From: Flaccisagitta enflata
Lineage: Eukaryota
Direction of reading: 5' to 3'
DNA: 64,000 nt
NCBI GenBank assembly: GCA_965153355.1
Contig: OZ231126.1
Span: 12,338,001-12,402,000 of the forward strand
In this document: positions 3,328-64,000 of the stretch, one piece after another
Layout: each line of letters begins with the position of its first letter
Position numbering within the stretch: the first letter of the stretch is position 1
Translations under genes and position numbers: made by a program
Notes under the pieces: model-generated
What the model saw: only the letters and a program-made list of their open reading frames with translations
The model's database searches: none
What the model was told of the DNA's origin: nothing

Positions 3328-3707
3328 GAAAAAAAATCACTTGTTGTCAACGATTTTTTTTTATAAACACCTCTTAAATACTGAATAGTCTTGTACATAG
3401 ATAATTAGATTATGCTAATCGCACCGAGTGCCGATGACTTTTTCCGTCCCGCCGCCCACTAAGTTTGGTGGCCGTTTCTACTATACTAGTGCAAATTATC
3501 ATAATGATTTTGTTATCGCTTTTGTAATTTTCTTTGCCCGCATTACCACATGGAGTTTCTTGACGCCTCTTGCCCAGTCACTAATGTGATTTTTATTGAT
3601 CATCATTAGTATATATACTGTTGCCAATGACTAGAATAAAATGCGGAGAAGTATAGCCATTTGAAAAGCAACAAGTTACGCTATCGATTACAAGACTAAC
3701 ATTTTTT

Positions 3708-3708
3708 C

Positions 3709-3807
<99 letters not shown>

Positions 3808-3817
3808 AACCACAACT

Positions 3818-3848
<31 letters not shown>

Positions 3849-3865
3849 CCACAACAACAACAACA
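3708..3865. repeat. (CAA)n microsatellite just upstream of exon 1
   Basis: Directly visible. Confidence 0.95.
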
Positions 3866-3952
3866 TTGATATCTACAATTACAATCATTTCAATTGTAAC
3901 AACAATCACGACAATGTTCCTTTCCATTTTCCTGAGCGGCCGATCAGCGTCG

Positions 3953-4019
3953 ATGTCACCGAGTTTGCTTTTATTTCTATCAATCTGCTTTTGGCTTTGC
4001 TGCGTTGCTGAGGCCCCTG
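3953..4019 (+). CDS. Predicted exon 1 (signal peptide) of the LRR-TM-pseudokinase-KEN-Ubl receptor
   Basis: ATG at 3953 encodes MSPSLLLFLSICFWLCCVAEAP (hydrophobic core, small-residue end), then G|GTGAGT donor at 4020 (phase 1). It matches the phase-1 acceptor at 7166. A second in-frame ATG lies at 3914. Confidence 0.75.
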
Positions 4020-4551
4020 GTGAGTCTTCGATCGAAAAGAAATCGCTCCAAATAGCAAACTCGTCTTCAACGGCTTCCTCAACTACTGTGACAGGTACAC
4101 CAACTTGTCATACAAGGTTAAAAAAGAAGTGTCTGTGCCTCTCTTTAGGTCTGTAACTCCATATGTCCGTCCAACCGTCACCGGAAGAGTCGCCTTTATT
4201 GGTACGATCAGGGCCCGGCAGAGGAATTCGAGGCCCCTATACAATCCAAAAATCCGCCCCCCCCCCGGTAGGCGCAATCGCCAGCTTGAATAGTAACATA
4301 TGCAGTCTTAGTATACATCACTTTTCTGTCTTTATACACTAAGCAAAGAGCTTGGTTTTGCACTTCCTTGAATCAGAGGCCTTAGTTTGTATTGAGCCTT
4401 TGACTTTTTTTTTCTTTTTTTTTTTTTTCTCCCTATTTTTCTGTTTTTTTTTCTCCCTTTTTTCTTTCTTTCCTCTTTGTTTCTATAACAATTAAGGGGG
4501 TATAGGTTGTATAGGCCTCTGCGGGTCTCCGTACGATCATACCAACATACA

Positions 4552-6022
4552 TTAGCGTTCAGGGTCCCCCGTACAAAATTTCTAAAAAAAAAGAAAGAAA
4601 AAAAATGTACCAATTTCAATTTTTTAATAGAGGGGTCTTAAAAAATGTGAAGAATCAGAATATCATGTTTGTTTTAGTCTAACTTGGGCCAAAAAAAATT
4701 AAAAACAGTTTTTAGTGCAAAAAACAGTTATTTTTGCCATAATATCAGTACTTATGTACAAAATTTCCATATTTCTTTTTAGTCGCGTGCACGCGAGTCT
4801 ACAACCCCCTCTGTCCGTCGGTTGGTCGGTCGGTTGGTTGGTCGGTTGGTCCGTCACACTTTACTTTTTTTTATGATTTTATTTCTTGGACCTCACTGCT
4901 CCTGCCCACGTTGTCTAGTGACCTCAAATATGGCCCCTGCCCACCCGCACGCGACTTCGGTAGCCGTGTATCCGGCCTTGTTTAGAAACACTACGTTCTT
5001 GTAGTAACTGATATTTGAGTGAATTTGTAATATTGGACTATAAGCCTAAGGGGCCTAAAAATGGCTTTAAAAAGCCCAAAAATGGGGAAATCAGTCAAAT
5101 TTCTAAAATCTTTGAAAAAAAAAGCATTGGAAACAGTGTATTTGGGTAAAAAACATGCCAGGTATGAATTTTATCCATCTCATACAAAAATTAGGGGCGT
5201 TATAAGTGAAAATACAAAACCACAATATGCAAATGAGATCATAGTTCAATTTTTGAAAAAATGGCGTATACAATTAAGAAACCTCACTTTTTAGTTGCGG
5301 ACACGCAACTCTATAAGAGGCTTTGTCCGTCCGTCGGTCGGTCCGGCGGTCGGTCCGTCGGTCGGTCCGTCGGTCCCTCGGTAACCATCGAGTCGAAAAG
5401 TGGGAAAACGCGTATTTCCGCCCCTGCCCACCCATCCGCAACTGATGGCCGTGTATCCCGCCTTGTTATGTGAGCTACTCTAGCTGCCACAAAAAAGGAC
5501 AATTCTACACTCTATAGGCGATTCTTTGAAAAATCAAACTTTAATCTTATTTGCATATTGCAGTTTTGCATTTTTCACTCATAACGCCCCTATTTCTTTT
5601 AGTAGATGGATGAAATTCATACCTGATATGTTTTTTACCCAATTACACTGTTTCCAATGCTTGTTTTTTTTTTAAATTATAAAAAATTTGAATGATTTCC
5701 TAATATTGGGGCTTTTTAAGCCATTTTTAGGCCCCTGATGCACACAGTACAATGTTACAAACTCACTCAAATATCAATCACTACAAGAACTTTGTGTTTC
5801 TAAAAAAAGAATTTGAAAATTTTATAGACAAGTACTGATTCTATAGCAGAAATAGCTGCTTTTAGCACTAAAAACCGTTTCTAATTTTTTTGGCCCAAGT
5901 TAGACCAAAATGAATATCATATTCTGATTCTACACCCTTTTTAAGACCCCTCTGTAATAAAATTGAAATTCATACATTTTTTGTCTTTCATCTTATTTTC
6001 AATGGGGGACCCTGACCGTTAG
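4552..6022. mobile_element. Foldback element in intron 1, with HINEs inserted at 4776-4983 and 5289-5467
   Basis: Arms of about 500 bp are imperfect reverse complements (cagggtccccc...agaggggtcttaaaaa...aacttgggccaaaaaaaatt vs aatttttttggcccaagtt...ttaagacccctct...gggggaccctga). Confidence 0.8.
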
Positions 6023-6258
6023 GCCGGGTTGTTTTCGAGAATAAAGGTTTATTTTTATTTCTCATTTTCCTCGCACGGCCTTTAAAAGAATGCAAAATGC
6101 AAAATAGCCGATTATATCAAAACACTAGTGGGTAGTTATCATTTTGTCACCAGTAAAAGCGGGTTTCGCCGCGCGGAAAAAAAAGTTGGAAGCCACTGAA
6201 CCACTGAACTAGACCTGTTGTCCTCAGTGAGCAACAACATCAGAGTGTAATCAATTTA

Positions 6259-6822
6259 CAGGGTGTTTCATGTCAAATTAGATGTAAGAAAACGATGCCA
6301 TTTTGCTTCTAAAAATGCAAAAGTAATTCTGAAAAAAGATTCAAAGAGCACTTAAGCTCCAATTTTTTGTGATAAGAATTTCATGGGTTTGGGTCAAATA
6401 TCTTGGCCTCAACATCAATTTGAAGTAAAATGTGCATTTAAAGGAGAAGCTCTTTTCACATAGTTTTGATTTTGAAAGTTTTTCTTTGAAGTGCTTTCAT
6501 TTTTAAATAACTTGAGCCACAGATGCCAGATCGGTCTCAAATTAAAGAAAATTTGATAAGCTTTAATCTGAGACCAATCTGGTAACTGTTTAGAAATGGT
6601 AGCACTTCAAAGAGGAACTTTGAAATCAAAATTGTGTTAAAAGAGCCTCTCTTTTAAATGCTTATTTTACTTCAAATTGATGTAGACAAGGTATTTGACC
6701 CAAACCCAAAAAAATTTTACAAAAAAAATGGAGCTTAAGTCCTCTTTTTTAGAACTATTTTTGCATTTTTAAAAATAGAATAGCATCGTTTTCTTATATC
6801 TATTTTGGCATGAAACACCATG
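6259..6822. mobile_element. Palindromic Tc1/mariner-type MITE in intron 1
   Basis: TA|cagggtgtttcatgtcaaa ... tttggcatgaaacaccatg; internal arms also pair. Confidence 0.75.
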
Positions 6823-6848
6823 TTTCAAGTTCCCCAACATCCTCCTAA

Positions 6849-7057
6849 AGCAAGGCCAAGACCCTCACGTGCGAGACTTACATTTAGAATGACTTAGAAT
6901 AACTTAGTATGACTGATTATATTCTTAAATAGCCTAAAATGAATTAAGATTGATAAAAAAAGTGTAATGGACAGACTGATTGACTGACAGACTGACAGAC
7001 AGATGTACGGATGGACAGACAAAGCAAGGTGTAGAGTCGCGTGCACGCGACTAAAAA
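6849..7057 (-). mobile_element. HINE-like element
   Basis: caaggccaa...gtagagtcgcgtgcacgcgactaaaaa. Confidence 0.7.
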
Positions 7058-7166
7058 TGGAAAACCATGTTTCTCTGGAATAAGTCAAAAAGTCGAAGAG
7101 AACTTTTTTTCCCATTACGCTATTGAGTGTTGCCATGTTTTTGGTACTCTTTTTTGTCACGGACAG

Positions 7167-10100
7167 ATGCAAGCTCTTATAATTTCAACAAAGAGGAATT
7201 TGGTTTCAATTCATCCATTGCGTTGCCCTCTTCAATGTCGTATCGCAATGACGCAAGCAACAATGATATTATTGATGACAAGAAGGATCAACTTCTTCAA
7301 AAAGAATGCCGCTTGTATTGTGGATTTGAACGTAGTTCACAGTACTACGACATTATATTGCATGACATTTATTGCCAACCATTACCGGATATAGAAGTTT
7401 GCAATTTGATGACACGGAAATCTCTGCGCGATTCCATTCGTACCCAGTTCCATATGTTACCATCATATGATTTTAGTCTTCTTTTGTGGGCGCCTAACCA
7501 TACAAGTTTTCCGCGATTAGAAGATGGATTCATGACGGACTTAGTTACAGCTGATAAAAGAGTTACTATTGTAGAGGTTCATATGGCAATGGAGAGACAT
7601 AATTCATCTTTCACAACCCAAATCGGTAATCACACTTTTGATGGTCAAAGAGATGGGCTTGAGCTTATTTATATTGATGGCATAGGTCTGGATTACATCG
7701 ATAGTGGCGCATTTTATGGAATCAGACAGCTGAAGAACTTTTATGCTGGTAACAATAGACTCACAGAATTAAGTTTCTCAATTTTTCAAGAAAACGAGGA
7801 ACTGGCGTTTTTAAACGTTTCTTACAACTTGATAACAAAATTAAATGTGCCTATTTGCCTAAAAAGTCTCTTAGAGCTTAGTCTGAAAAACAATCGATTG
7901 ACCTCGATAGAACTAAAAAAGCTTCCACAACTCCAATACCTTGATCTAAGAAATAATCAATTGACCTCAGCAAAACTTCAACAACTTCCAAATCTCGAAA
8001 GGCTTTATCTAGGCAATAATCAATTGACCTCAATAGAACTTCAACAATTTCCAAATCTCATGTTCCTTGGTCTACGCAAAAATCGATTGACCTCAGTAAA
8101 ACTTCAACAACTTCCAAAACTGGAATTTCTTTATCTATCCAATGGTCAATTGAATTCAACAGAAAGTACACTATGCGTGAATTGTCCCAAGCTCTCATTT
8201 TTGGACGTGTCAAATAATCTCATCAGTGAGATTTCCGAGGATGCGTTTACCAGCTTGTTCAATTTGCGAGTGTTAGATTTAAGCTTTAATAAAATCAAGT
8301 CCTTGGAGTTTACGACAAGGTTAAATCGTCTGGAACTTCTTACTTTGAAAAATAATCTACTTGAAAAAGATTGCAATATTTCATTAAACACCCAACCATT
8401 TCAAAGAACCAAAATATCAAAGCTTGTTTTGAGCTATAATAAGATACAAACAGTCCGTATCATTGATCAGAGCCATGAAATTAACCCGCAACCCGTAATC
8501 CATGAATTACATGTTGATAACAACCAAATTACATTAATTGAAACTACTCCTGGTATTACTGTTTTGAACATCACTTCCAATAACATGAGCTGGGTTGATT
8601 CTTCTGAGATGGTCAGGATGAACGAGATTCTATCTTTGTCAATATCGAACAATCCATGGGAGTGTTCTTGCGAGGATGAATACAAAAACTTAACAAAGTT
8701 TTTATTGCGCCATGGGCAGATACCCTGTGCTCCATCAAAGTGTCAATCTTCAACCAATGGTATCTCAACTGTAACCATTGGCTGCAATGATCAAGATTTG
8801 AACTCACTCCCCAAGTGTCTACCCTATGCAGAGGTAACGCTTAATTACGCTGGTTGTGGATTGAAACATTTGAGTTTCTCAAAACATCAAGAAAACATTG
8901 TCTCACTCAACCTTCGAGGAAATCAAATAATCAGTATAAATGGGTCTACTTTTCATTTTCTAAAAAAGTTGAACAGACTTGATTTAAGGAACAACAGCAT
9001 TAAAAGATTACCAATGGAGATAAAGCATCTGAATGACACTGTCATCTATTTAGCGGGTAACCCATTGGCCTGTGGTGACTGCAAAATGATACATTTGCTT
9101 TGGAATATTACAGGAACAACATACACTTGTGCAGACGGAAGTCATTTCAATTTTTTCAGAATTTATTTGTTGTGCCACCTTGATAAAATATTATCTGCTC
9201 TAACCAGTATCTTAATGCTTGCAATTCTTTTACATTGTACTTCCAAAATGAATAAAAGAAGAAAGTTGGGAAAACAATACAGCAAAAAGTACTTTCCTAA
9301 GCTTCATCTTGCTAAAGAAATGACTGTCTTTCAAAAAGAAAAAGAAATTCGCAAGCTCATCAACCATGAGCGAATAAGAGAATTAGGGGGTGTGTTCATC
9401 AGTAGAACAATCACATGTAGTACTACTGGCATTTTCCATCTGGAAAAAGTTGAGTGCAGCCTTCATGAATATTCAAAACACTCTTTCCCAGTTCATTATG
9501 ACTATTCAGAGCTTGCCAGGGATCTCCTTCAAGCAGTTGACTATCTACATGTAGAAAAAGGCATTGTCCATGGAAATATTGGACCCAAATCTACATTTCT
9601 TCAATTGGACAGCACAAATCGCCATTGGCGTCTAAAACTGGGAGACTTCAGCCAAGCTCATCATTCTGTTACCGATCCATCCATTGGGGATCCTTTGTTA
9701 TTAGTTTCAGGATTTGCCGACATTGAGGGCGGATGTAGTTGTTTGAAAGAAGATTTAAGATCAGCTGCAAGAGTCATTTTTTGTTTGATAAGTGGTAAGG
9801 AGAATGAAAATGGATTGACCCACAAAAACATTGAAAAAGTTTCAGATGTAGACTTTGCCATTATTTTGCTGTCTTTGTGTGCCGGTCTGTCAGCTGATAG
9901 GGCTCTTCAGCTACCACCATACTGCAAAATTGTTAGAAATCTTTCTTTTTTGACAATGCTGGACAAGAGCAGAATACAGAACATCACAGATCATGCAAAC
10001 TATGTTGAAGGAAAATCTTTATGGAGCACATCTGCTCCAATGATTATGAAAGAATTTGAAATTCTATCAAGTTGTTTGGAGGTAACAGCTCTCCCTTATA

Positions 10101-11263
10101 TCCTCCATATGGCTTACGATCTGTGTGACATCCCCTTGAATGAAATCAAGCTAATGAAACGGTTATTAGAGGAGGTCTGCTTGAAAAAACAAATCATTCA
10201 ACAGGGGCAATTAATTCCAGAGTCGTTCAAGCTTGTCACTGACAGGAATGGCAACTGGAAAACAAATTTCAAACCTACAGCAGTATCGCACCAAAAAGAT
10301 GAGGTGGATACATGTTGTTCAAAAGCCGCTGCATCCCTCATTGACTTTCTCATGAACTGGAAGATGAGGGAGGAAAAACTTCAAGTCCACGATTTCTTAG
10401 ATGATGTCCATGATTCATTCAAGCTTGAAACTTGTATTTTGATACTGTCACTGCAGGAGGGATTGTCACCACAAGAGGCCTTGTTCACCCCTCTTTTCCA
10501 ACATGAACTAACCCAGAAATCAATTCTAGAAGAATTGAACGCATTCTTGAAGCAGATCAAGTGCGAAAAGAGTAAGCAAAAAAATGACTATAGGGCGAGC
10601 ATTTTACTTGAAGATGTCGAAATAAATTCACCACTTGTCATTGGTGGGGAGGGCGCATGGAATGTCAAACTGGTACCAGAACTTCTCGAGGAATTTGCTT
10701 CAAACAAGGGATACAGATTCAACATCACCTCTTTTGCAGATCTACTCCGTATCATTCGAAACATGTTCCAACATGGACATGAGAATCCCATCGCGATGCA
10801 GGCAGCTTTTGGCACCACAAATCCTTCTCCCACACAAATGATGACAGAATTTTTTGGTCAATTTTCATTTCTCTACCTTCATTCTCTCAGTTGCTTTTCC
10901 AAGCTGTTTCCACCAAGGCCTGATTCTGTGCCGAAATTGTACATTGACACCTATGATAGATTTGAAAGCGTCATTTGCGCCCAAGGCATGCAGAATGGCA
11001 CCATCAAACCACTTAGGAAAGATGGCTTCATCACATTGTCTTTTGAGTCAGCAACAGACGTCAGTTTCATGGAAGTTATCACTTTGGAAGGCAACACGCG
11101 ATCTTGTGTTGATTTTATTGTTGATGTTGCACCTCGTCTTGCTCAGAAATCACAAGAACATTGGCAAGACATTCCATCAACATCTCTCGTAGTCAGATGT
11201 TTTGACAAGATCGTGGATGTTTCAAAAGCAGAAGCCTTGAGCTTGCCGTCGACTAGCAAAAAG
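7167..11263 (+). CDS. Main exon 2: Toll-like LRR ectodomain, TM helix, IRE1/RNase L-like pseudokinase, degenerate duplicate module, KEN ribonuclease domain
   Basis: Lies in the 1381-codon open frame 7127-11272. Many LxxLxLxxN repeats; NPWECSC at 8651; NPLACGDC at 9059; TM ILSALTSILMLAILLHC 9188-9238 followed by KMNKRRK; YLHVEKGIVHGN (9569) and LKLGDFS (9644); DLLRIIRNMFQH 10739-10774. Acceptor tctttttgtcacggacag|7167; donor AAG|GTGTGG at 11264. Confidence 0.93.
7870..8160 (+). repeat. Coding tandem repeat, 63-bp period (about five 21-aa LRRs)
   Basis: aatc(g/a)attgacctc recurs at 7892, 7955, 8018, 8081, with a diverged copy at 8144. Confidence 0.9.
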
Positions 11264-11370
11264 GTGTGGTAGCCTTGTTTTGAAAAAAAACTTCATGGTG
11301 CTTCAAGTCAAGTCGAACCTGAATAATCAACGTAACTCTGCCTCTGCAGTAGATAAGTAAATGTTTTCAG

Positions 11371-11623
11371 TTTTTAGTCGCCTGCACGCGACTCTACATC
11401 GCACTCTGTCCGTCTGTCGGATGGTCCATCGGTCAGTCCATCGGTCGGTCTGCAACGCTTAGCTTTTTTTGGTCATTTTACCCTATTCTAAGTCATTTTG
11501 AATTATTTAAAGTCAATTTAAGTCAATTTACATTTAGTCTCTTAGTCTTTTGGTCTTATAGTCTTTTAGTTTTGGTCTAATGTTCTTAACAACCGCACGC
11601 GACTGTAGGCTGTTGGCCTTGTT
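11371..11623 (+). mobile_element. HINE-like element in predicted intron 2
   Basis: tttttagtcgcctgcacgcgactcta ... gcacgcgact...ggccttgtt. Confidence 0.7.
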
Positions 11624-11660
11624 TTCTCAAATAGCATGATAAAAAAATACATTAATTGTA

Positions 11661-12070
11661 CCACGCGTATCAATAAAAAAGACGCACTTTTGAATAGCTT
11701 ATTGTGGCAACGAATTTAAAAAAAACCTATTGAAATTTTAGACTATCAGATAGCCGTTTGAAAATACTTTCATTTGGTTTCAATCTGGTATTTCTATCTT
11801 TTTTCGTTTAGAAATGGCAGTCGTTTGAATAAAAACTTTGCATTTTCATTTTCACAAACGCTTTATGAAAAGCGCATTTCAGCAAAATGGAGCTTCTCTT
11901 TGAAAGGCTCTAGCTCCTAAACCGTTTGAGATACAAACCTGGGATTGGTCTAGATTAAAAGATTTTTTGAAAATCTTTTAGTATGAATTTTTTTAAAAAA
12001 AGTTTTATTTATTTTTTGTATCTGTTTTATCAATGAAAAGAAAAGTTTGTTTCTTTTTTTATACGCGTGG
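11661..12070. mobile_element. TA-flanked MITE in predicted intron 2
   Basis: TA|ccacgcgtat...atacgcgtgg|TA. Confidence 0.7.
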
Positions 12071-12167
12071 TATGCGTATTAAACTGTCAACCACCAAAGA
12101 TAAATAAGCTCTGCTTTATCATATTCCTAGTTCATTATATTCATGCATGTCTTTGATTGAATTCTAG

Positions 12168-12282
12168 GTTTCGTTGAAAGGACAAACAAATTCGGCCAAA
12201 CACTCATCAAAGCCAAACATTCCAAATGGTCATGGAACCGATGAAGTTGGCGCAAAAGTGGCCAAAATATTTTTGCCCGAAG
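12168..12282 (+). CDS. Predicted exon 3 of the receptor gene
   Basis: attctag| acceptor; open in phase 0 (VSLKGQTNSAKH...KIFLPE). Phase-1 donor GAAG|GTAGAG at 12283, with an alternative phase-1 donor CTTA|GTGAGT at 12295. Confidence 0.65.
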
Positions 12283-12477
12283 GTAGAGCACTTAGTGAGT
12301 CATTAGCAGTCCAATGTCAACGGGCAGTTCGCCCTCGCCTAAAATTACCGTAAACATCACCAATGTGCCGACGGTTGACTATTGTTTCGATAGATTGTGT
12401 CAGTTTCACTACTTGTACCAACGTTCAAATTGTCTGTGTCAATATTGATTTAAATGGTTTTAATCATTCCTCAACAG

Positions 12478-12620
12478 GCTCCACTATTCGTATCCTGAAA
12501 CCGGAGCTTTGGATGGAATTCCTTTCCTTTGATTCTCTAGCTGGTGAAACGGTTGCCCATAAGTTCAAACCGGGAGACAACGTCTTGTCCGTCAAAGGCT
12601 TTGCAGTGGATCGAATCAAG
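12478..12620 (+). CDS. Predicted exon 4 (start of ubiquitin-like domain)
   Basis: cattcctcaacag| phase-1 acceptor; encodes GSTIRILKPELWMEFLSFDSLAGETVAHKFKPGDNVLSVKGFAVDRIK; AAG|GTAATG phase-0 donor. Confidence 0.72.
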
Positions 12621-12916
12621 GTAATGCGCCTCTGGGATACTCTGTTCTGCTTAGTGCTGACCCCTGATAGCACTTAACTACGACGCATTAGAAAATGTCC
12701 CTGGAGACATGGCAGCATAAGACAAATTAAAACATTTTAGTTGGCTAGAGCAAGTTGCTCTGAGCAACTTCACATGACGTGATTTGTATGTTATTGTGAC
12801 CGTTGCTATGCCGTTCACCATCACCATTGTTTATCCTAAACGGAAAATTAAGATCCATGTGGCATTTCACATCAGATTTTATGCATTTGAAATTGAAAGC
12901 GGTTCACTTTTTTCAG

Positions 12917-13135
12917 GCGCATTTCTCCGCTGACGCACAAATGGATCCCAACGAAATCGCTGTTCTGAGCGGCCATGAGGAATTGAAAGCAGCCCAGTTG
13001 CTCGTCGATTTCGTCTTTCCAAAGTATCACAAACTCACAATTCGATATCCAGACCGTCAAATAACTTTTCGAGAAAGACAACCGTCTTTGGAAATTGAAG
13101 AAGACAACTTTTTCGCGTTGTTTGACAATGAATGA
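12917..13135 (+). CDS. Predicted terminal exon 5 (rest of ubiquitin-like domain plus acidic tail)
   Basis: ttcacttttttcag| phase-0 acceptor; AHFSADAQMDPNEIAVLSGHEELKAAQLLVDFVFPKYHKLTIRYP...EEDNFFALFDNE then TGA. The five exons sum to 4641 nt = 1547 codons. Confidence 0.72.
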   Translation, partial: AHFSADAQMDPNEIAVLSGHEELKAAQLLVDFVFPKYHKLTIRYPDRQITFRERQPSLEIEEDNFFALFDNE

Positions 13136-13276
13136 TGAATTGTTTAATTTGATTGCCTGTCATTGGTATAACCACTGTTACAGTTTCGCTTCAAGTTTCA
13201 ATTATGGCATGGGGTTGAGCATAATATTTTCGCATGTTTAATGCTTTGCTTATATTGAAGGAGACAGGTTCAATCA

Positions 13277-13428
13277 TTTTTAGTTGCGGACACGCAACTC
13301 TATGAGAGCGTTTGTCCGTCCGTCTTTCCGTCGGTCCGTCGGTCCGTTGGTCCATTGGTCCGCTGGTTGAAAAGTGTGAAAACGCCCATCCGTCCGCAAC
13401 TGGTATTGACCGTGTATACGGCCTTGTT
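13277..13428 (+). mobile_element. HINE-like element in predicted 3' UTR
   Basis: tttttagttgcggacacgcaactc ... gtccgcaact...cggccttgtt. Confidence 0.75.
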
Positions 13429-21624: not shown

Positions 21625-21840
21625 ATACCAACACAAATACCGAAGTTGCGTACGGGTGGGCAGGGGCAGTTACAAAAAAGGCTAGCCAAGTATTTGGGCA
21701 GGAGCATTCATGCAAAAAAAAAAAAAAAAAAAAAAGAATTGCCCGAAAACGCCGAAAAAGCTAAGTGTGACCAATCAACCATCAAACCATCCGACCGACC
21801 GACATAGCGGGTTATAAAGTCGCGTGCACGCGACTAAAAA
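21625..21840 (-). mobile_element. HINE-like element
   Basis: cgggtgggcaggggc ... gtcgcgtgcacgcgactaaaaa. Confidence 0.65.
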
Positions 21841-22234: not shown

Positions 22235-22601
22235 TTCGTTACTTTGAAACACTTTTTTATATGATTAAATCTTGTGGGCCACCCAGGAAGTCAACCTTTG
22301 AAAACAGACAATTTTCACCAATAAAATCGACGCTTATTTCCTTTTTCTTTTATCTTATCTTTCTTTTTTTTCCCTTCCTTTGAATCTGTCTTTAACTCAT
22401 TTTTTTTCTCAACTCATTCCTAATTTTTCATTCATACATGCTATCTACTATATCTTAAGATATTCTATTCTGTATTGCATTGTCACGTTGTAGAGCACTT
22501 AATCATGCAACATGGCCGTAGTAACTAGTAAGGATTTGCTCATAGCACAATTTGATTTGCAATTGAAGTTTCTTGCTATGTGCCATGATGAAGTTTGTGG
22601 C

Positions 22602-22865
<264 letters not shown>

Positions 22866-23199
22866 TTTGATGTTGTAGTTACTGTGTATGCAGAAAAAGT
22901 TTTGTCGTTTCTTGCTGTTCAACATGTCTTTTCTCAAGAACAAATTTGTTCTTTTTTTCTTAGATGCCTTTTTATGGTTTTGATGGTGCCATTTCTTAAT
23001 GATTTTGAAGGTGTTATATCATGATTGGGAGCTATAAATCCTTTGAACCGATCATTTTTTTTGATCAACTTTTGTGTTTCATTTTTTTCCCTTTTTAGAA
23101 AAACAAGTCTTTTAACTTTAAGTACTCTTAGGCAATTATTTTTCTGAAAGAGGATTAAACGCCATCTAGCATCAATGACGACTTTTTAAATTGTATAAA

Positions 23200-23403
23200 A
23201 AACGAGGCCAACACTTAACACGTGCGAGACTTACATTTAGATGACTTAGAATGACTTAGTATATTATCAAATGACCGAAAATGACTTAAGGAAAAAATTG
23301 AAAAAAAAAAAGAATTGTTAAAAAAAAGTGTGATGGACCAACAGACCAACCAATGGACGGATGTACAAAGCGGGGTGTAGAGTCGCGTGCACGCGACTAA
23401 AAA
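23200..23403 (-). mobile_element. HINE-like element
   Basis: aggccaacac...gtagagtcgcgtgcacgcgactaaaaa. Confidence 0.7.
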
Positions 23404-33938: not shown

Positions 33939-34883
33939 AACAAGGCCGGATACACGGCAATCCAGTCGCGGACGGTTGGGCAGGAGCAGTAATGCGAAAA
34001 TCGCTCGGAATTCAAGAATATGACCAACCGACCGACTGAAGGACGGACGGACCGACCGACACGGCAAGGTGTAGAGTCGCGTGTCCGCGACTAAAAATCT
34101 GTCTTCCTCTCATTTTAAGCCGTGTGATAAGTGGCATTACAGTCGACACCCCGCGTTGTCGGTCCGTTGGTCCATACATCCCATTTTTACAAATTATATA
34201 TTTTGCGGTCCTTGGTCTCACTGAACCTGCCGAAATAAACTAGTGACCTCAAGCAAGGGCCTACCCGCATGCGACTGGGGTAGATTTTGACTTAGCCTTA
34301 GCAAAAACAAGAGTCTTACAAAAAAGACCGTCGTAATCATTGAAGAAAATAAGTAAAATCCACAGCAAGCTTATACGGAACAAGACCGGATACACGGCTA
34401 CCGAAGTCGCGTGCGGGTGAGCAGAGGCCATATTTGATGTCACTAGACCATATGGGCAGGAACAGTGAGGTCCAAAAATAAAAATCATAAAAAAGTAAAT
34501 TGTGACCGACCGACCTACCGACTGACGGACAACGCGGAGTGTAGACTGTAGAGTCGCATGCACGCGATTATAAAAAGTATTTAAAAAAAAAAAAAAGATA
34601 TGAGGAAAAACGAACCCGGTCCTTCGCCTGGTAATCAGCCTTGTTTTCATGTCAATTTTTAGTCGCGTGCTACGCGACTCTACACCCCGCTTTGTCGGTC
34701 CGTCGGTCTGTCCGTCCGTCCGTCAGTCCGTCCGTCCGTTGGTCCGTCCGTCCGTCACACTTTACTTTTTTGGCGTTTATGGGGTTTTTGGTTATAACGC
34801 TCCTGCCCAAATGCTCCACTGACTTCAAATATGGCCCCTGCCCACCCGCACGCGACTGGGGTAGCTGTGTATCCGGCCTTGTT
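33939..34883. mobile_element. HINE cluster (33939-34096 minus, degenerate copy about 34115-34285 plus, 34379-34572 minus, 34657-34883 plus)
   Basis: Diagnostic gtcgcgtg..cgcgact and gtgtatccggccttgtt ends. Confidence 0.7.
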
Positions 34884-36159: not shown

Positions 36160-36407
36160 CACGTAGGCAATGGGCTGGGTTTTAAGGGAATATAAATCGT
36201 TGATAACAGTGGGCTACACTATTTTGTCAAATGGGCAATGCGCAGAGTCGTAGGCTGACGCTTACATGTTGAATATGTACATCGATGGTAAAAAGAGGTC
36301 ACTCTAGATACACTGGATCAGGATGGAAAAAGAATTTCTTCCCAACGCCATTTTTTGCGCCCTTCAGTGCCAGAGGGTCGAAGCATAAAACGTTTACGAG
36401 CAGGTCC

Positions 36408-37832
<1,425 letters not shown>

Positions 37833-38191
37833 GGAACCATATAAAATTGGTCTTCTCATTTCTCATATAAAGCGAATCATGTTTTCTCCTTGCAAAAGCT
37901 GACGTTAACAACTTCTGCATGGGGGGGGGGGGTGGGGGGGGTGGGTGGGAAGGGGTTAGTATGAGCGGGATGAGCCGGATCGGAAGGGAGACCAAAGGGG
38001 GATGGCTGGCGGTATTGAGCCCGCTAGGGTCAGGGCGCGGAAGTGGGGATAAGTCAAAGGGGACGGGAATCTGAGGGGGAAGTGGGAACGAAATGATGAC
38101 GAGATTGAACTCAGGACGTAATGAGGATGAAGTAATGAACTGAAATACAGATTGTCCATCAACTATTGAAAACAAGATGAAATCAAAACAT

Positions 38192-38411
38192 AACAAGGCC
38201 AACACCTGTAAGTCGCCTGCGAGACTTACAGATTGACTTAGAATGACTTAGAATGACTCAGTATACTCTTAAATAACTTTAAATGACTTAAAGAAATAAA
38301 ATTGAGAAAAAAAGTAAAAGTGTGACGGACCAACAGACCGACCGACCGACCAACCAACCGACGGACGGACGGACAAAGCGGAGTGTAGAGTCGCGTGCAC
38401 GCGACTAAAAA
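38192..38411 (-). mobile_element. HINE-like element with demonstrable empty site
   Basis: Paralog at 63062-63086 reads aaatcaaaacataaaaaaacggctc with no element; insertion in an A/T run without a clear TSD. Confidence 0.85.
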
Positions 38412-42037: not shown

Positions 42038-43025
42038 ATTATGAACAAACAGTAGAATGGACATAAAGAAAGAAACAGTAAGAAAGAATAACGCCAGACG
42101 GTATGAAAAACAAAAGATAAAACTATTATAGAGAGCGGGAAGCTGGTTGAAAAAAAGAAAGAAAACAAACTCTAGACATATGTATATAAATCTAAAATAG
42201 ACAGAGATTTGAAGTTGTCGAAAAACAAATGATAAGGAAGGTCTCTCATCTTTCTCTCATCGATGTTCTTTTGTCATATTTTCTAAAATTGAAATGTGTT
42301 GAAAAGCCGCCAGGAGCCGCAAGCAGTCGAAGAAAAGGAAAATGACGCCCAATAGAGTTATAATATCATATATACTATCCTATTAGACCATCCTATTGTG
42401 CTATACTATTTACGTCTTTTGTGTTTGCTACGCTTTGACAAATTCTTTTTAAAAGATGATAAATTTGGACTATTGCACCTCCTGCTACTGGTTCCCGCTT
42501 AAAGAAGGATTTTGTCAATGTTACATTCATACGATAATCAAGGTAGATATTACATAATAATATTTAATAATGAAAAATAATAATTTCATTTTGGCCGTGG
42601 TTAAGACAAGTTTGGCCCGAGGTTTAAAAAGAAAACTGAGATATCGATTCCCATAAGAGATGCATTTAAATCACTGTTTTACATTCGAATTATATGTTTG
42701 GATTGAACCGCGAAATATTATTGGGATTAAGGTGATGATTGATCCCAAATAGTTACGCCCTGCCAGAAAAGGCTCACTGAGGCATGAGTGCCGGAAAAGT
42801 GCCCGAAAATAAATTGCAATACCCTTTAGGACTCTGAAGTACCCTAAAGTATCCTAAAGTACCTTAAGTACCTAGAGTGCCTTTACTGCCTATAGTACCC
42901 TTAGGTACCCGCTAAAATACCCTGAAGTACCCTGGAGAACCCCAAAAAGTGCAAATTTTAAAGATGTTTCCGACGGACGGATCAACACAGCAAGTTCTGC
43001 TGTCGCGTGCACGCGACTAAAAATA

Positions 43026-48908: not shown

Positions 48909-50374
48909 CTATTTTACTTTCTCTCACTTTCGAGTCTCTTATGTTTGTTCTTTTGTGTAAAGTCTGTCTGGCATCAATTTGGCTCCTCCCATTCTGCTCC
49001 TCTCTCCCACTGATTTGCTTCTCTTCCTCTTTTTAACCTCACCCCCTTTTTCACCCTCTCTCCCTCTGCTTTACACCTCTTCCTCTTTTTAACTAGGCAA
49101 CCTTTTAATCACGAAAATCATGAGTAAGTTGTAATCATTTCCACTGAAGCACGACGTTGTGCATCAGTGGAATGAAGAATAACTGATGCTCTTTGAAATT
49201 TGAGCTTCAGTGGAATTGGAAATAACTGAATTTGTCATATTAGCAAATACATTCAAAATAATCTTTATTTACTTTTATCTGAGGAAATCATCTTCTTTCT
49301 TTTTACCTCTACATAATTGTTAATTCCAGCAAAAACCTGCAAAATGTTTGTCATGTATTTTTCTAGGTTGACGTTTTTTCCTTAAAATGGGACATCTGTA
49401 ACGAACCGCCGCGTCAGACAGACTGCACTGATAGACGGACCGACTCAGCCTGCAACCAGCAGCGCAGCGTAAAGCCTAAAATTGCTTAATATGGCGCGTA
49501 GATGATGCTCAATGAATTGAAGGATACAAAAGTGATTGATTTTCATGCCGCTTCCACCGCCTCCGCTTTTGCTTCCGCTTCCATTTTACAAATACTGCTG
49601 GCTATCCACCTACTAATTTAGAAGCAGTCAACCGCACCCACACGCACATCTCTACTTGCCAGGGATTTACACTTTAGTTAAGGGTCAAAAAATGCTTAAA
49701 GAAATTTTGATTGTTGCACCACTTATTCTTAGATCATTGGAACACGGTTGCGATGCGATCAAAAATTGTTTTCTGCATAAAAATTACTTATCCAAAGGTT
49801 TTGAATTTCAGTAACCACTAAATCTAGGTCGTACCTAAAATTGGATATGTAAGTATATGAGTGGAAGCATATACTATACAGAAATGAGTAGCTTTTGAAT
49901 GTTTTATTTTACTTTTATATGTTAAGTCTATTTTTCAAAAACATTTTTCTAAAGTTTTTTGTTAAATACTTTTTGTTGCACATTTCATAAAATAACATTT
50001 AAAAAAAAGTTGTAACGCCATCCTTTTGCACTGTTTGACATTGTCCAGTAAGTCAATTTTAACAAGAAGAAATGAAGTTGATTTTGCTGCTTTTATTCTG
50101 TTCAACAAGAGTAGGCGTTTTTTTTAGTTGATATTCTAAGAGTTCATCAAGTTCTCCCAGAAGATCAAGTTGGTTCATTCAACAACAATTAGTTTGTTTG
50201 TCGCACCTTTAGAAATTCTATCATTATCCTTTTTTTGCCATTACTCAGTCTAATTGCGAGCCAAAACTTTGCTCTACTTGTTTTTATTTGCCTCTACCAC
50301 TCTCTCTGTTTCTCCTCCTCATGTTCTTTGTTTTCGCCTTCTTCTTTTTCTCTTCTTCTAATTTTCTTTGTCGT

Positions 50375-51180
50375 CTTCTTCTCCTTCTTCTTCTTCTTCT
50401 TCTTCTTCTTCTTCTTCTTCTTTTTCTTTTTCTTTTTCTTTTTCTTTTTCTTTTTCTTCTTCTTCTTCTTCTTCTTCTCCTTCTTCCTCCCCTTCTTCCC
50501 CTTCTTCCTTCTTATTCTTCTTCTTCTTCTTCTTCTTCTTCTTCTTCTTCTTCTTCTTCTTCTTCTTCTTCTTCTTCTTCTTTTTCTTCTTCTCCTTCTT
50601 CTTCTTCTTCTTCTTCTTCTTCTTCTTCTTCTTCTTCCCCTTTTTTCCCTTCTTCCTTCTTCTTCTTCTTCTTCTTCTTCTTCTTCTTCTTCTTCTTCTT
50701 CTTCTTCTTCTTCTTCTTCTTCTTCTTCTTTTTCTCTTCTTCTTCTTCTTCTTCTTCTTCTTCTTCTTCTTCTTCTTCTTCTTCTTCTTCTTCTTCTTCT
50801 TCTTCTTCTTCTTCTTCTTCTTCTTCTTCTTCTTCTTCTTCTTCTTCTTCTTCTTCTTCTTCTTCTTCTTCTTCTTCTTCTTCTTCTTCTTCTTCTTCTT
50901 CTTCTTCTTCTTCTTCTTCTTCTACTTCTCCTTTTTCTTCCCCTTATTCTTTCTTCTTCTTCTTCTTCTTTTTCTTCTTCTTCTTCTTCTTCTTCTTCTT
51001 CTTCTTCTTCTTCTTCTTCTTCTTCTTCTTCTTCTTCTTCTTCTTCTTCTTTTTCTTCTTCTTCTTCTTCTTCTTTTTCTTTTCTTTTTCTTTTTCTTCT
51101 TCTTCTTCTTCTTCTTCTTCTTCTTCTTCTTCTTCTTCTTCTTCTTCTTCTTCTTCTTCTTCTTCTTCTTCTTCTTCTCC
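50375..51180. repeat. 0.8-kb (CTT)n tract
   Basis: Directly visible. Confidence 0.95.
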
Positions 51181-51622
51181 CTCATCCTCATCCTCCTCTT
51201 CTATCTCCCCCTCCATCACGCCGCCGGAGCACTACAATGGCGCCAAGGGAAACATTTTTGCCGTTTTTCTCAGGTTCTGATCTTTTGCGGGAATTCTTTT
51301 TTTTTCTTCTTTTGGATCTGTTCTTTTTTTTTCTCTCTTTTTTCTCTCTTTTTTTTTCTTTTCTTTTCCTTTTGCGGCCACCAACTCAGAAGACAGAAAA
51401 ATCGATCTCATTTCACAAATATCAGCTGGTATCGTTTCTTGGGTATCTTATCTGAGCTCAGCTAATTTGATGAGAGTTCATCATACTTTGGCAATGATCA
51501 TTGATCAGTTTATCTGGCCTTAACTCGTAAATCAATGTGATTAATCATTCATGGAAGAAATAGACATGACAGAATTGTATGGCCAGTTCTGACTTGAACC
51601 AAGTCTAACTTTTTACATAAGA

Positions 51623-53019: not shown

Positions 53020-53915
<896 letters not shown>

Positions 53916-54174
53916 TGATGTTGGTGAAGGTCGTAATAGTTGTGGTGATAATGAGGGTGATGGCAAACATGCAAGAGTTAATGGCGTTGGTATCAGTAAC
54001 CATCGAAAGTAAAGGTGGTGGTGGAGCTAGAGGTGTGTTGAATGTTGAAAAAAGCATTCATGAATGTCTCCCTTCATTAGGTTTCTCTCGTTCTCAATCT
54101 TCAATACGCAAAAACATTTTGAGTTCTGCTAACTGGTGACATTTGATATTCTTTTTTTAGAGGATCTTCTTTTT

Positions 54175-54378: not shown

Positions 54379-54515
54379 TTTTAGTTGCGTGCACGCCACT
54401 ATACAACCCGCTCTGCCCCACTGTCTGTCTGTCGGTCGGTCGGTCACACTCTGCTTTTTTTCTTCGCCCCTGCCCACCCGCACGCGACTAAGCTAGCCGT
54501 GTATCCGGCCTTGTT
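54379..54515 (+). mobile_element. HINE-like element
   Basis: ttttagttgcgtgcacg...gcacgcgact...gtgtatccggccttgtt. Confidence 0.7.

Positions 54516-59673: not shown

Positions 59674-64000
<4,327 letters not shown>

Follow-up and report, generated by a model that had tools for sequence, protein, structure and literature searches.

What kind of receptor is encoded by a gene that joins a leucine-rich repeat (LRR) ectodomain, in one open frame, to a kinase fold and a ribonuclease (RNase) of the kinase-extension nuclease (KEN) type? This question is raised by a locus at positions 3953-13135 of a stretch of 64,000 nucleotides of Flaccisagitta enflata (contig OZ231126.1, positions 12,338,001 to 12,402,000 of the forward strand), the whole of which is called the window here, all coordinates being counted from its first letter. 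A preliminary description of the window had proposed a Toll-like LRR receptor with the pseudokinase-KEN RNase of IRE1 and RNase L in place of a TIR domain. Judged from its sequence, the gene at this locus is intact and encodes a type I membrane receptor, and the predicted product is, as far as the literature searched extends, a previously undescribed form of kinase-KEN nuclease. We consider it fairly probable, by analogy with IRE1 and RNase L, that the clustering of this LRR receptor by a ligand turns on RNA cleavage by the pseudokinase-KEN unit without phosphorylation.

Gene structure

A single frame of 1381 codons is open over positions 7127-11272 (+); given the base composition of the window, the probability of a stop-free run of this length arising by chance is about 10^-40.6. 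The gene built around this frame (3953-13135, +) has five predicted exons, with GT-AG borders at every intron, compatible phases and no internal stop, and its product of 1546 codons has exactly the length given for the spliced protein in the preliminary description. The exons are as follows:

3953-4019 (+): exon 1 (22 codons and 1 base), with the start codon and the signal peptide; GTGAGT donor at 4020
7167-11263 (+): exon 2 (4097 nucleotides), the long open reading frame (ORF); CAG acceptor, GTGTGG donor
12168-12282 (+): exon 3 (115 nucleotides), linker with ...IFLPEG at its end; TAG acceptor, GTAGAG donor
12478-12620 (+): exon 4 (143 nucleotides), first half of the putative second ubiquitin-like domain; CAG acceptor, GTAATG donor
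12917-13132 (+), stop codon at 13133-13135: exon 5, remaining half of the putative second ubiquitin-like domain; CAG acceptor, phase 0

Exon 1 encodes a hydrophobic peak (2.08, residues 1-19) and joins exon 2 at 7167 in phase 1, forming a GAT codon. Exon 2 carries the ectodomain, the transmembrane (TM) helix, the pseudokinase, a dead KEN duplicate, the KEN domain and the first of two putative ubiquitin-like domains. The contiguity of the LRR, TM, kinase and KEN parts is independent of splicing, because all four lie in this one 4.1-kb exon; an artefactual fusion of two genes was ruled out on the same ground, and the continuity across 9200-9400 on which the preliminary description depended is borne out, as this region lies within a single open exon. 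The ...IFLPEG sequence at the end of exon 3 corresponds to the VPEG motif of the relatives (alignment with P0007, P0009 and P0019; P numbers designate the window protein and its relatives in our searches), and residues 1372-1410 of P0007 match positions 12477-12602, covering most of exon 4 (tblastn, expectation value E 0.005). We also considered an end of the gene at the stop codon at 11270, where the relatives P0003 and P0002 appear to end. This was rejected: the ...KV terminus of P0003 is the one expected from read-through of the conserved AAG|GT donor, and P0007, P0009, P0019, P0015 and P0023 run on into a tail matching exons 3-5.

The pseudokinase-KEN unit and the domains that follow it

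The cytoplasmic features encoded by exon 2 are:

9254-9922 (+): kinase-like domain (Pfam Pkinase, motif alignment with P0034, Foldseek matches to IRE1)
9851-10129 (+): degenerate duplicate of the end of the C-lobe and the first half of KEN (hhalign, BLASTP)
10436-11002 (+): second copy of the helix motif at the end of the C-lobe, and KEN domain (Pfam, family profile, structure model), with the catalytic RNMFQH at 10757-10774
11021-11215 (+): putative first ubiquitin-like (beta-grasp) domain, in exon 2 (structure model)

The KEN domain was identified above threshold by the Pfam family Ribonuc_2-5A (PF06479; cutoff 23.3 bits), with 37.9 bits and E 2.2e-9 for the whole exon (positions 10571-10885) and 39.8 bits for the cytoplasmic part; this match lies within the interval 10460-10910 that had been assigned to KEN in the preliminary description. 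A search of the solved chains with the KEN part alone as a single sequence (phmmer) gave no match at E≤10, so a family profile was needed. The profile, built from 32 family sequences, matched yeast IRE1 (E 2.6e-8), human IRE1 (E 2e-6) and RNase L (E 0.045), and aligned LLRIIRNMFQH of the window protein with LLRALRNKYHH of yeast IRE1, thereby placing RNMFQH on RNKYHH. The catalytic columns of the family alignment A2 are almost invariant (R in 14 of 15 sequences, N in 14 of 15, H in all 15), the one exception for R and N being the ragged start of a fragment, and no block of the family consensus is better conserved than the R-N-xxx-H helix, which the window protein retains as the preliminary description had stated. 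In the structure model of the window protein, the KEN domain and first ubiquitin-like domain have predicted local distance difference test (pLDDT) values of 85-97.

Kinase motifs were read by alignment with the soluble relative P0034, in which VAVK, HRD, DFG and APE are intact. The window protein has HGN at the HRD position (9563-9592) and DFS at the DFG position (9638-9658), and has neither APE nor a glycine loop, for which there would be no room, since the putative beta-3 lysine comes only about 11 residues after the TM helix. Among the receptor forms of the family, the HRD position is occupied by HGN, HGK, HCK, HLN or HGG and the DFG position by DFS, DFT, CFE or NFS, APE again being absent. 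By the usual motif criteria, the kinase-like domain is a pseudokinase, in agreement with the preliminary description. The cytoplasmic part alone gave weak kinase matches only in a single-sequence phmmer search (best DAPK3, E 0.001).

Foldseek comparison of the model of the window protein gave IRE1 in all the rows listed (best E 1.2e-5). As the kinase-like part of this protein was modelled weakly, we also folded P0009, a relative that lacks the insert described below and comprises the whole cytoplasmic cassette. The P0009 model (mean pLDDT 91.9, predicted template-modelling score 0.87) aligned with the kinase-RNase of IRE1 over 355-409 columns, with target-normalised template-modelling scores of 0.59-0.68 and E-values down to 9e-14, and RNase L followed at rank 47 (E 8e-11). 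Its N-lobe is modelled as one strand, the C-helix and two further strands, the beta1-beta2 hairpin being missing. P0009 aligns to the kinase fold and to KEN in one superposition, so that the two form one unit; the window protein has the dead KEN duplicate between them. The predicted structures show a pseudokinase-KEN unit with the fold of the kinase-RNase unit of IRE1 and RNase L, and structure prediction, which had been suggested as a check in the preliminary description, accordingly came out in its favour, IRE1 being the best match for both models and RNase L the next. Clusters of kinases and IRE1-like proteins in the ESM Atlas (0.88-0.90) were taken as leads only.

The insert, of about 190 amino acids between the kinase core and KEN, is present only in the window protein, P0003, P0006, P0002 and P0010. 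Its profile matched the KEN profile with a probability of 97.4% (hhalign, E 1.5e-11, 87 columns); BLASTP supports only the duplicated helix motif of 19 amino acids (E 0.014). The counterpart of the catalytic helix in the duplicate reads ILHMAYDLCD, in which R, N and H are all lost, and the insert is predicted to be a degenerate KEN duplicate devoid of catalysis.

Two ubiquitin-like domains appear to follow KEN. The first is modelled in the order strand-strand-helix-strand-strand (structure-model residues 598-662, pLDDT about 90), and the same element is found at residues 387-452 of the P0009 model, so that the strand order fits in two models. The second would be encoded by exons 3-5, whose 158 residues match the tails of P0023 (E 2e-8), P0047 (2e-8), P0015 (2e-7) and P0007 (1e-6). 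Matches to profiles of the ubiquitin type are weak: the family profile reached the ubiquitin-like domain of RAD23B at E 0.16, the homologous tail of P0015 matched Pfam ubiquitin at E 3.3e-4 (20.8 bits, below the cutoff of 25.4), P0074 matched it at E 0.009 (also below the cutoff), and there was no Pfam match in exons 3-5 of the window itself. The domain list of the preliminary description therefore stands for the LRRs, the TM helix, the kinase and KEN, but it missed the dead KEN duplicate and left the two C-terminal ubiquitin-like domains uninterpreted. In the alignment, exon 5 (12917-13132) has about 26 extra residues near the C-terminus of the second ubiquitin-like domain that are missing from P0007, P0009, P0019, P0074 and P0029.

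Ectodomain, relatives and known receptors

The part of the protein predicted to lie outside the cytosol, and the segment that crosses the membrane, are encoded by exon 2 as follows:

7307-8746 (+): N-terminal Cys-rich cap, first LRR block, LRRCT-type cap and Cys-rich linker (Pfam, motifs)
8747-9142 (+): second, short LRR block with second cap NPLACGDC at 9059-9082 (LRR_8, motif)
9188-9265 (+): one TM helix (9188-9244) and, directly after it, the basic KMNKRRK (9245-9265) (hydrophobicity)

Pfam identified LRR_8 in seven stretches of the exon-2 product (E 1.1e-34), the best of them at residues 590-647 of P0001, in the second LRR block, together with LRR_4 (E 1.4e-25). The cores of the first LRR block start at about 7802, its NPWECSC cap lies at 8651-8671 and the Cys-rich linker begins at 8726; these motifs, the second cap, the TM helix and the basic stop-transfer sequence were all located as the preliminary description had reported them. 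LRR-core motifs number 16 in the ectodomain versus four in the cytoplasmic part, and N-glycosylation sequons 14 outside versus four inside. The TM helix has a hydrophobicity of 1.96 (model residues 697-715). The hydrophobic N-terminus, the single TM helix and the distribution of sequons fit a type I membrane topology.

The TIR families of Pfam were absent at E≤1 from exon 2 and from exons 3-5, as had been stated in the preliminary description, and at E≤0.01 from the full-length relatives P0007 and P0029. Likewise, the exon-2 product had no match to the IRE1 luminal or ankyrin families at E≤1, its ectodomain matching LRR families only. Among the 120 relatives listed, one (P0174) has a TIR domain. 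The solved structures closest to the ectodomain are those of IGFALS, a Leptospira LRR protein, LGR5, LRIG1 and SHOC2, with LGR4, LRRTM2, ERL1 and ERL2 also among the matches and the Toll-like receptors (TLRs) ranking lower. The order of signal peptide, long LRR block, cap, Cys-rich linker, short LRR block, second cap and single TM helix is the layout of the multiple-cysteine-cluster Tolls. The term “Toll-like” used in the preliminary description is consequently apt for the layout alone and does not extend to the sequence. The protein differs from TLRs in lacking a TIR domain, in having LRRs that are not TLR-specific and in having a nuclease, rather than an adaptor-binding domain, as its output module; a TLR was ruled out because there is no TIR domain. 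An LRR ectodomain with one or more caps and a single TM helix, as found here, is common to many LRR receptors other than TLRs. LRR receptor kinases and pseudokinases, such as the plant LRR receptor-like kinases (RLKs), resemble the window protein in combining LRRs outside the membrane, a TM helix and a kinase fold in the cytoplasm. Nothing beyond these shared domain types points to a relationship; in the window protein the kinase is dead, and a KEN RNase and putative ubiquitin-like domains come after it.

An exhaustive HMMER search with the cytoplasmic part among 1.84 billion representatives recovered 67 relatives at E≤0.001, of which 34 reach E≤1e-10 and 13 reach E≤1e-30; many of the 67 are fragments, and the closest are 41-45% identical. 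P0007 (1457 amino acids) and P0029 (1393 amino acids) are full-length and have the same order of LRR, TM, weak Pkinase and Ribonuc_2-5A, and several partial proteins also have the LRR-TM-pseudokinase-KEN order. A TM segment directly precedes the pseudokinase in P0003, P0006, P0007, P0029, P0031, P0056 and P0068. Other relatives have different front ends. P0074 (1599 amino acids) has LRRs and a Roc domain (26.3 bits, narrowly missing the cutoff of 27) ahead of the pseudokinase-KEN-ubiquitin-like cassette, a likeness to the ROCO (LRR-Roc) proteins that is confined to this relative, the window protein having no Roc domain. P0034 (534 amino acids) is soluble and has a canonical kinase (Pkinase 109.5 bits) followed by KEN (17.2 bits, below the Pfam cutoff) and a single tail domain, and the ancestral cassette may have looked like this. 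P0002 (955 amino acids), the only protein recovered by a homology search for longer proteins with profile A2, has the pseudokinase and dead-KEN unit twice in tandem before a live KEN (insert matches at residues 72-256 and 421-568). The predicted proteins show that the pseudokinase-KEN cassette has been reused behind other front ends. Several relatives lie on contigs barely longer than their ORF, and the tail of P0007 is contiguous whereas that of the window gene is split over exons 2-5, as would be expected if these relatives were derived from transcripts. A single-protein query of metagenome contigs found no relative. In P0074, a Thr/Pro-rich stretch is also flanked by two strongly hydrophobic segments, one near residue 635 and the other near residue 733.

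To our knowledge, kinase-KEN nucleases have been described with two sensors, the luminal domain of IRE1 and the ankyrin/2-5A module of RNase L. In both enzymes, the RNase is switched on by the pairing of kinase-KEN units; IRE1 is a type I membrane protein of the endoplasmic reticulum (ER), and the pseudokinase and KEN unit of RNase L is activated without phosphotransfer. The window protein resembles IRE1 in its type I topology, with a sensor outside the cytosol, one TM helix and a kinase fold joined to a KEN RNase; IRE1 is also its best profile match and best fold match, and R-N-xxx-H is kept. It differs in having an LRR ectodomain instead of the IRE1 luminal domain, a dead KEN duplicate, two putative ubiquitin-like domains and Phe in the column aligned with a catalytic Tyr. 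Furthermore, the trans-autophosphorylation step of IRE1 cannot apply to a kinase without HRD, DFG, APE and glycine loop. With RNase L it shares the pseudokinase and KEN, as reflected in the fold match and the weak profile match, but it has no ankyrin/2-5A sensor, is predicted to be anchored in the membrane with an extracellular or luminal LRR sensor, and is closer in sequence to IRE1. An IRE1 orthologue was ruled out by the missing luminal domain and the dead kinase, and RNase L by the missing ankyrin module and the membrane anchor. By analogy, the receptor would work most like IRE1 in its topology and most like RNase L in its dead kinase.

In its passages on KEN, a 2013 survey of HEPN domains (PMC3710099) reports fusions of KEN to kinase, ankyrin, CCCH, UBI (in rice) and BRCT domains, and lineage-specific expansions of KEN in Oikopleura and monocots; these passages mention no LRR-TM form of KEN. 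Ribonuc_2-5A is listed among the extra domains of plant RLKs in part of another article (PMC7333395). The preliminary description had not recognised the architecture from characterised proteins, and the literature searched, supplements apart, contained no description of an LRR-TM-KEN protein, although InterPro may list one as uncharacterised.

Mechanism, rival explanations and surroundings of the gene

Under the reading that we prefer, a ligand would bind the LRR ectodomain, whether on the cell surface, inside an endosome or within the ER lumen, and this binding would cluster the receptors and pair their pseudokinase-KEN units, by analogy with IRE1 and RNase L, in which such pairing switches the RNase on. 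With a dead kinase, the receptor would, like RNase L, be activated without any need for phosphorylation. RNA close to the membrane would then be cleaved in a metal-independent manner, and innate defence or stress signalling would be a likely role. A complex prediction for two copies of the KEN and first ubiquitin-like part (cytoplasmic residues 356-678) gave a score of 0.00, which, having been obtained without controls, gives no verdict. If this reading is true, there would be a direct route from ligand recognition at the membrane to RNA cleavage, and an LRR ectodomain, as a third sensor, would make a dimerisation-activated RNase a general receptor output. The family also provides a natural series for the KEN switch without phosphorylation, in which the kinase is live, dead, or dead and accompanied by a dead KEN duplicate.

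We tentatively suggest, as a possible extension of this reading, that the pseudokinase, KEN and two ubiquitin-like domains constitute a portable RNA-cutting output cassette of animal innate immunity, placed behind surface LRR receptors (the window gene, P0007 and P0029), behind LRR-Roc (P0074) or on its own with a live kinase (P0034). As a pattern-recognition receptor, the product of the window gene would then convert an external ligand into internal RNA cleavage without an adaptor or a kinase cascade, and the dead KEN copy could serve as a partner within the same chain, or as a brake, for the live KEN.

Several points weigh against the proposed receptor-RNase. The gene and its product are predicted from sequence, with transcription at most surmised, and RNA cleavage, the ligand, self-association and localisation are proposals, the immune role being argued purely by analogy. 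The ectodomain is, by its sequence matches, generic LRR and not specifically TLR-like. The Pkinase match straddles the cutoff of 31.7 bits, with 32.3 bits when a piece of 447 amino acids is scored and 31.2 bits for one of 678, and pLDDT is mostly 35-75 over the kinase-like part and the insert of the window model. The column aligned with yeast Y1043 contains F in the window protein, with Y two residues upstream. Finally, the family is small and consists mostly of fragments, and the clusters of 10 relatives (21 members listed) contain ENA or Logan assemblies only, with no name and no NCBI or UniRef record.

The F in the column aligned with the catalytic Tyr is also an argument for considering KEN a non-catalytic or very weak scaffold, with signalling by recruitment of partners through the pseudokinase, the dead KEN duplicate and the ubiquitin-like domains, the last of these being typical interaction modules. 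The protein already contains a dead KEN copy and a dead kinase, implying that catalysis has been lost repeatedly in the cassette. Across the family, the Y1043 column contains Y in eight of 11 sequences, and F, H and Q once each. However, the R, N and H columns are kept, as described above, in the best-conserved helix of the family. In the part of a yeast Ire1 study that bears on these residues (PMC3149027), the holding of the scissile phosphate is assigned to R1056 and N1057 and a contribution of at least 3x10^5-fold to H1061, and the Y1043F change costs about tenfold. Given these figures, the F of the window protein would imply attenuation at most, rather than a dead enzyme, and we regard such a scaffold as unlikely. 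The same enzyme might instead be active in a task unrelated to pathogens, in a developmental, adhesion or neuronal LRR receptor controlling local mRNA stability or in an ER-lumen stress sensor parallel to IRE1, itself a type I ER membrane protein. The proximity of the ectodomain to generic LRR proteins (IGFALS, LGR4/5, LRIG1 and LRRTM2) and the single TIR domain among the 120 relatives listed are consistent with such a role, but Pfam finds no IRE1 luminal-domain family in the ectodomain, and the family is small, patchy and fast-diverging (41-45% identity to the closest members), with swaps of the sensor (LRR-TM, LRR-Roc or none), a pattern that would be commoner in defence than in core developmental genes. 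We therefore find a non-immune receptor-RNase rather unlikely.

The third explanation, an unexpressed or decaying gene copy whose frame has only recently fallen out of use, bears on the gene itself. Transcript support was not obtained for the locus: no RNA data set was listed as containing the exon, and when about 6 in 100 of one RNA-Seq run from the same study was compared with region 3800-13400, 34 reads aligned, all of them partial fits that are uninformative on expression, on repeat copies near 5084-5404 (with loose ends) and at 13109-13400, with none on exons. The surrounding 64 kb is also very rich in repeats, without another gene, and has a copy of an interspersed repeat on each side of exon 2. 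Nevertheless, 1546 codons in five exons without a stop, with intact GT-AG borders and matching phases, the minute probability of the 1381-codon frame (about 10^-40.6) and the retention of catalytic and structural motifs make such a copy very improbable, and the intact receptor gene described above remains the preferred interpretation of the locus.

In the rest of the window (14000-64000), no other convincing gene was found, all ORFs of at least 150 codons being of low complexity or derived from repeats, and Rfam gave no match at its gathering thresholds anywhere in the window. The low-complexity sequences of this region include a (GA)n tract at about 36273-37900 and trinucleotide runs at 22503-23024, 50193-51465, 53161-54057 and 60117-61497. 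A further long trinucleotide run, encoding poly-Thr, poly-Asn or poly-Val according to the frame, occupies 3700-3890, immediately ahead of the start codon (3953), where we presume the promoter or 5' untranslated region to lie. An interspersed repeat with the palindromic core GTCGCGTGCACGCGACT has 10 sites in the window, where none would be expected by chance:

4781-4798: GTCGCGTGCACGCGACT repeat site
7035-7052: GTCGCGTGCACGCGACT repeat site
11376-11393: GTCGCGTGCACGCGACT repeat site
21818-21835: GTCGCGTGCACGCGACT repeat site
23381-23398: GTCGCGTGCACGCGACT repeat site
34075-34092: GTCGCGTGCACGCGACT repeat site
34552-34569: GTCGCGTGCACGCGACT repeat site
38389-38406: GTCGCGTGCACGCGACT repeat site
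43001-43018: GTCGCGTGCACGCGACT repeat site
54383-54400: GTCGCGTGCACGCGACT repeat site

Two of these copies flank exon 2, one about 115 nucleotides upstream of its acceptor and the other about 110 nucleotides downstream of its donor.

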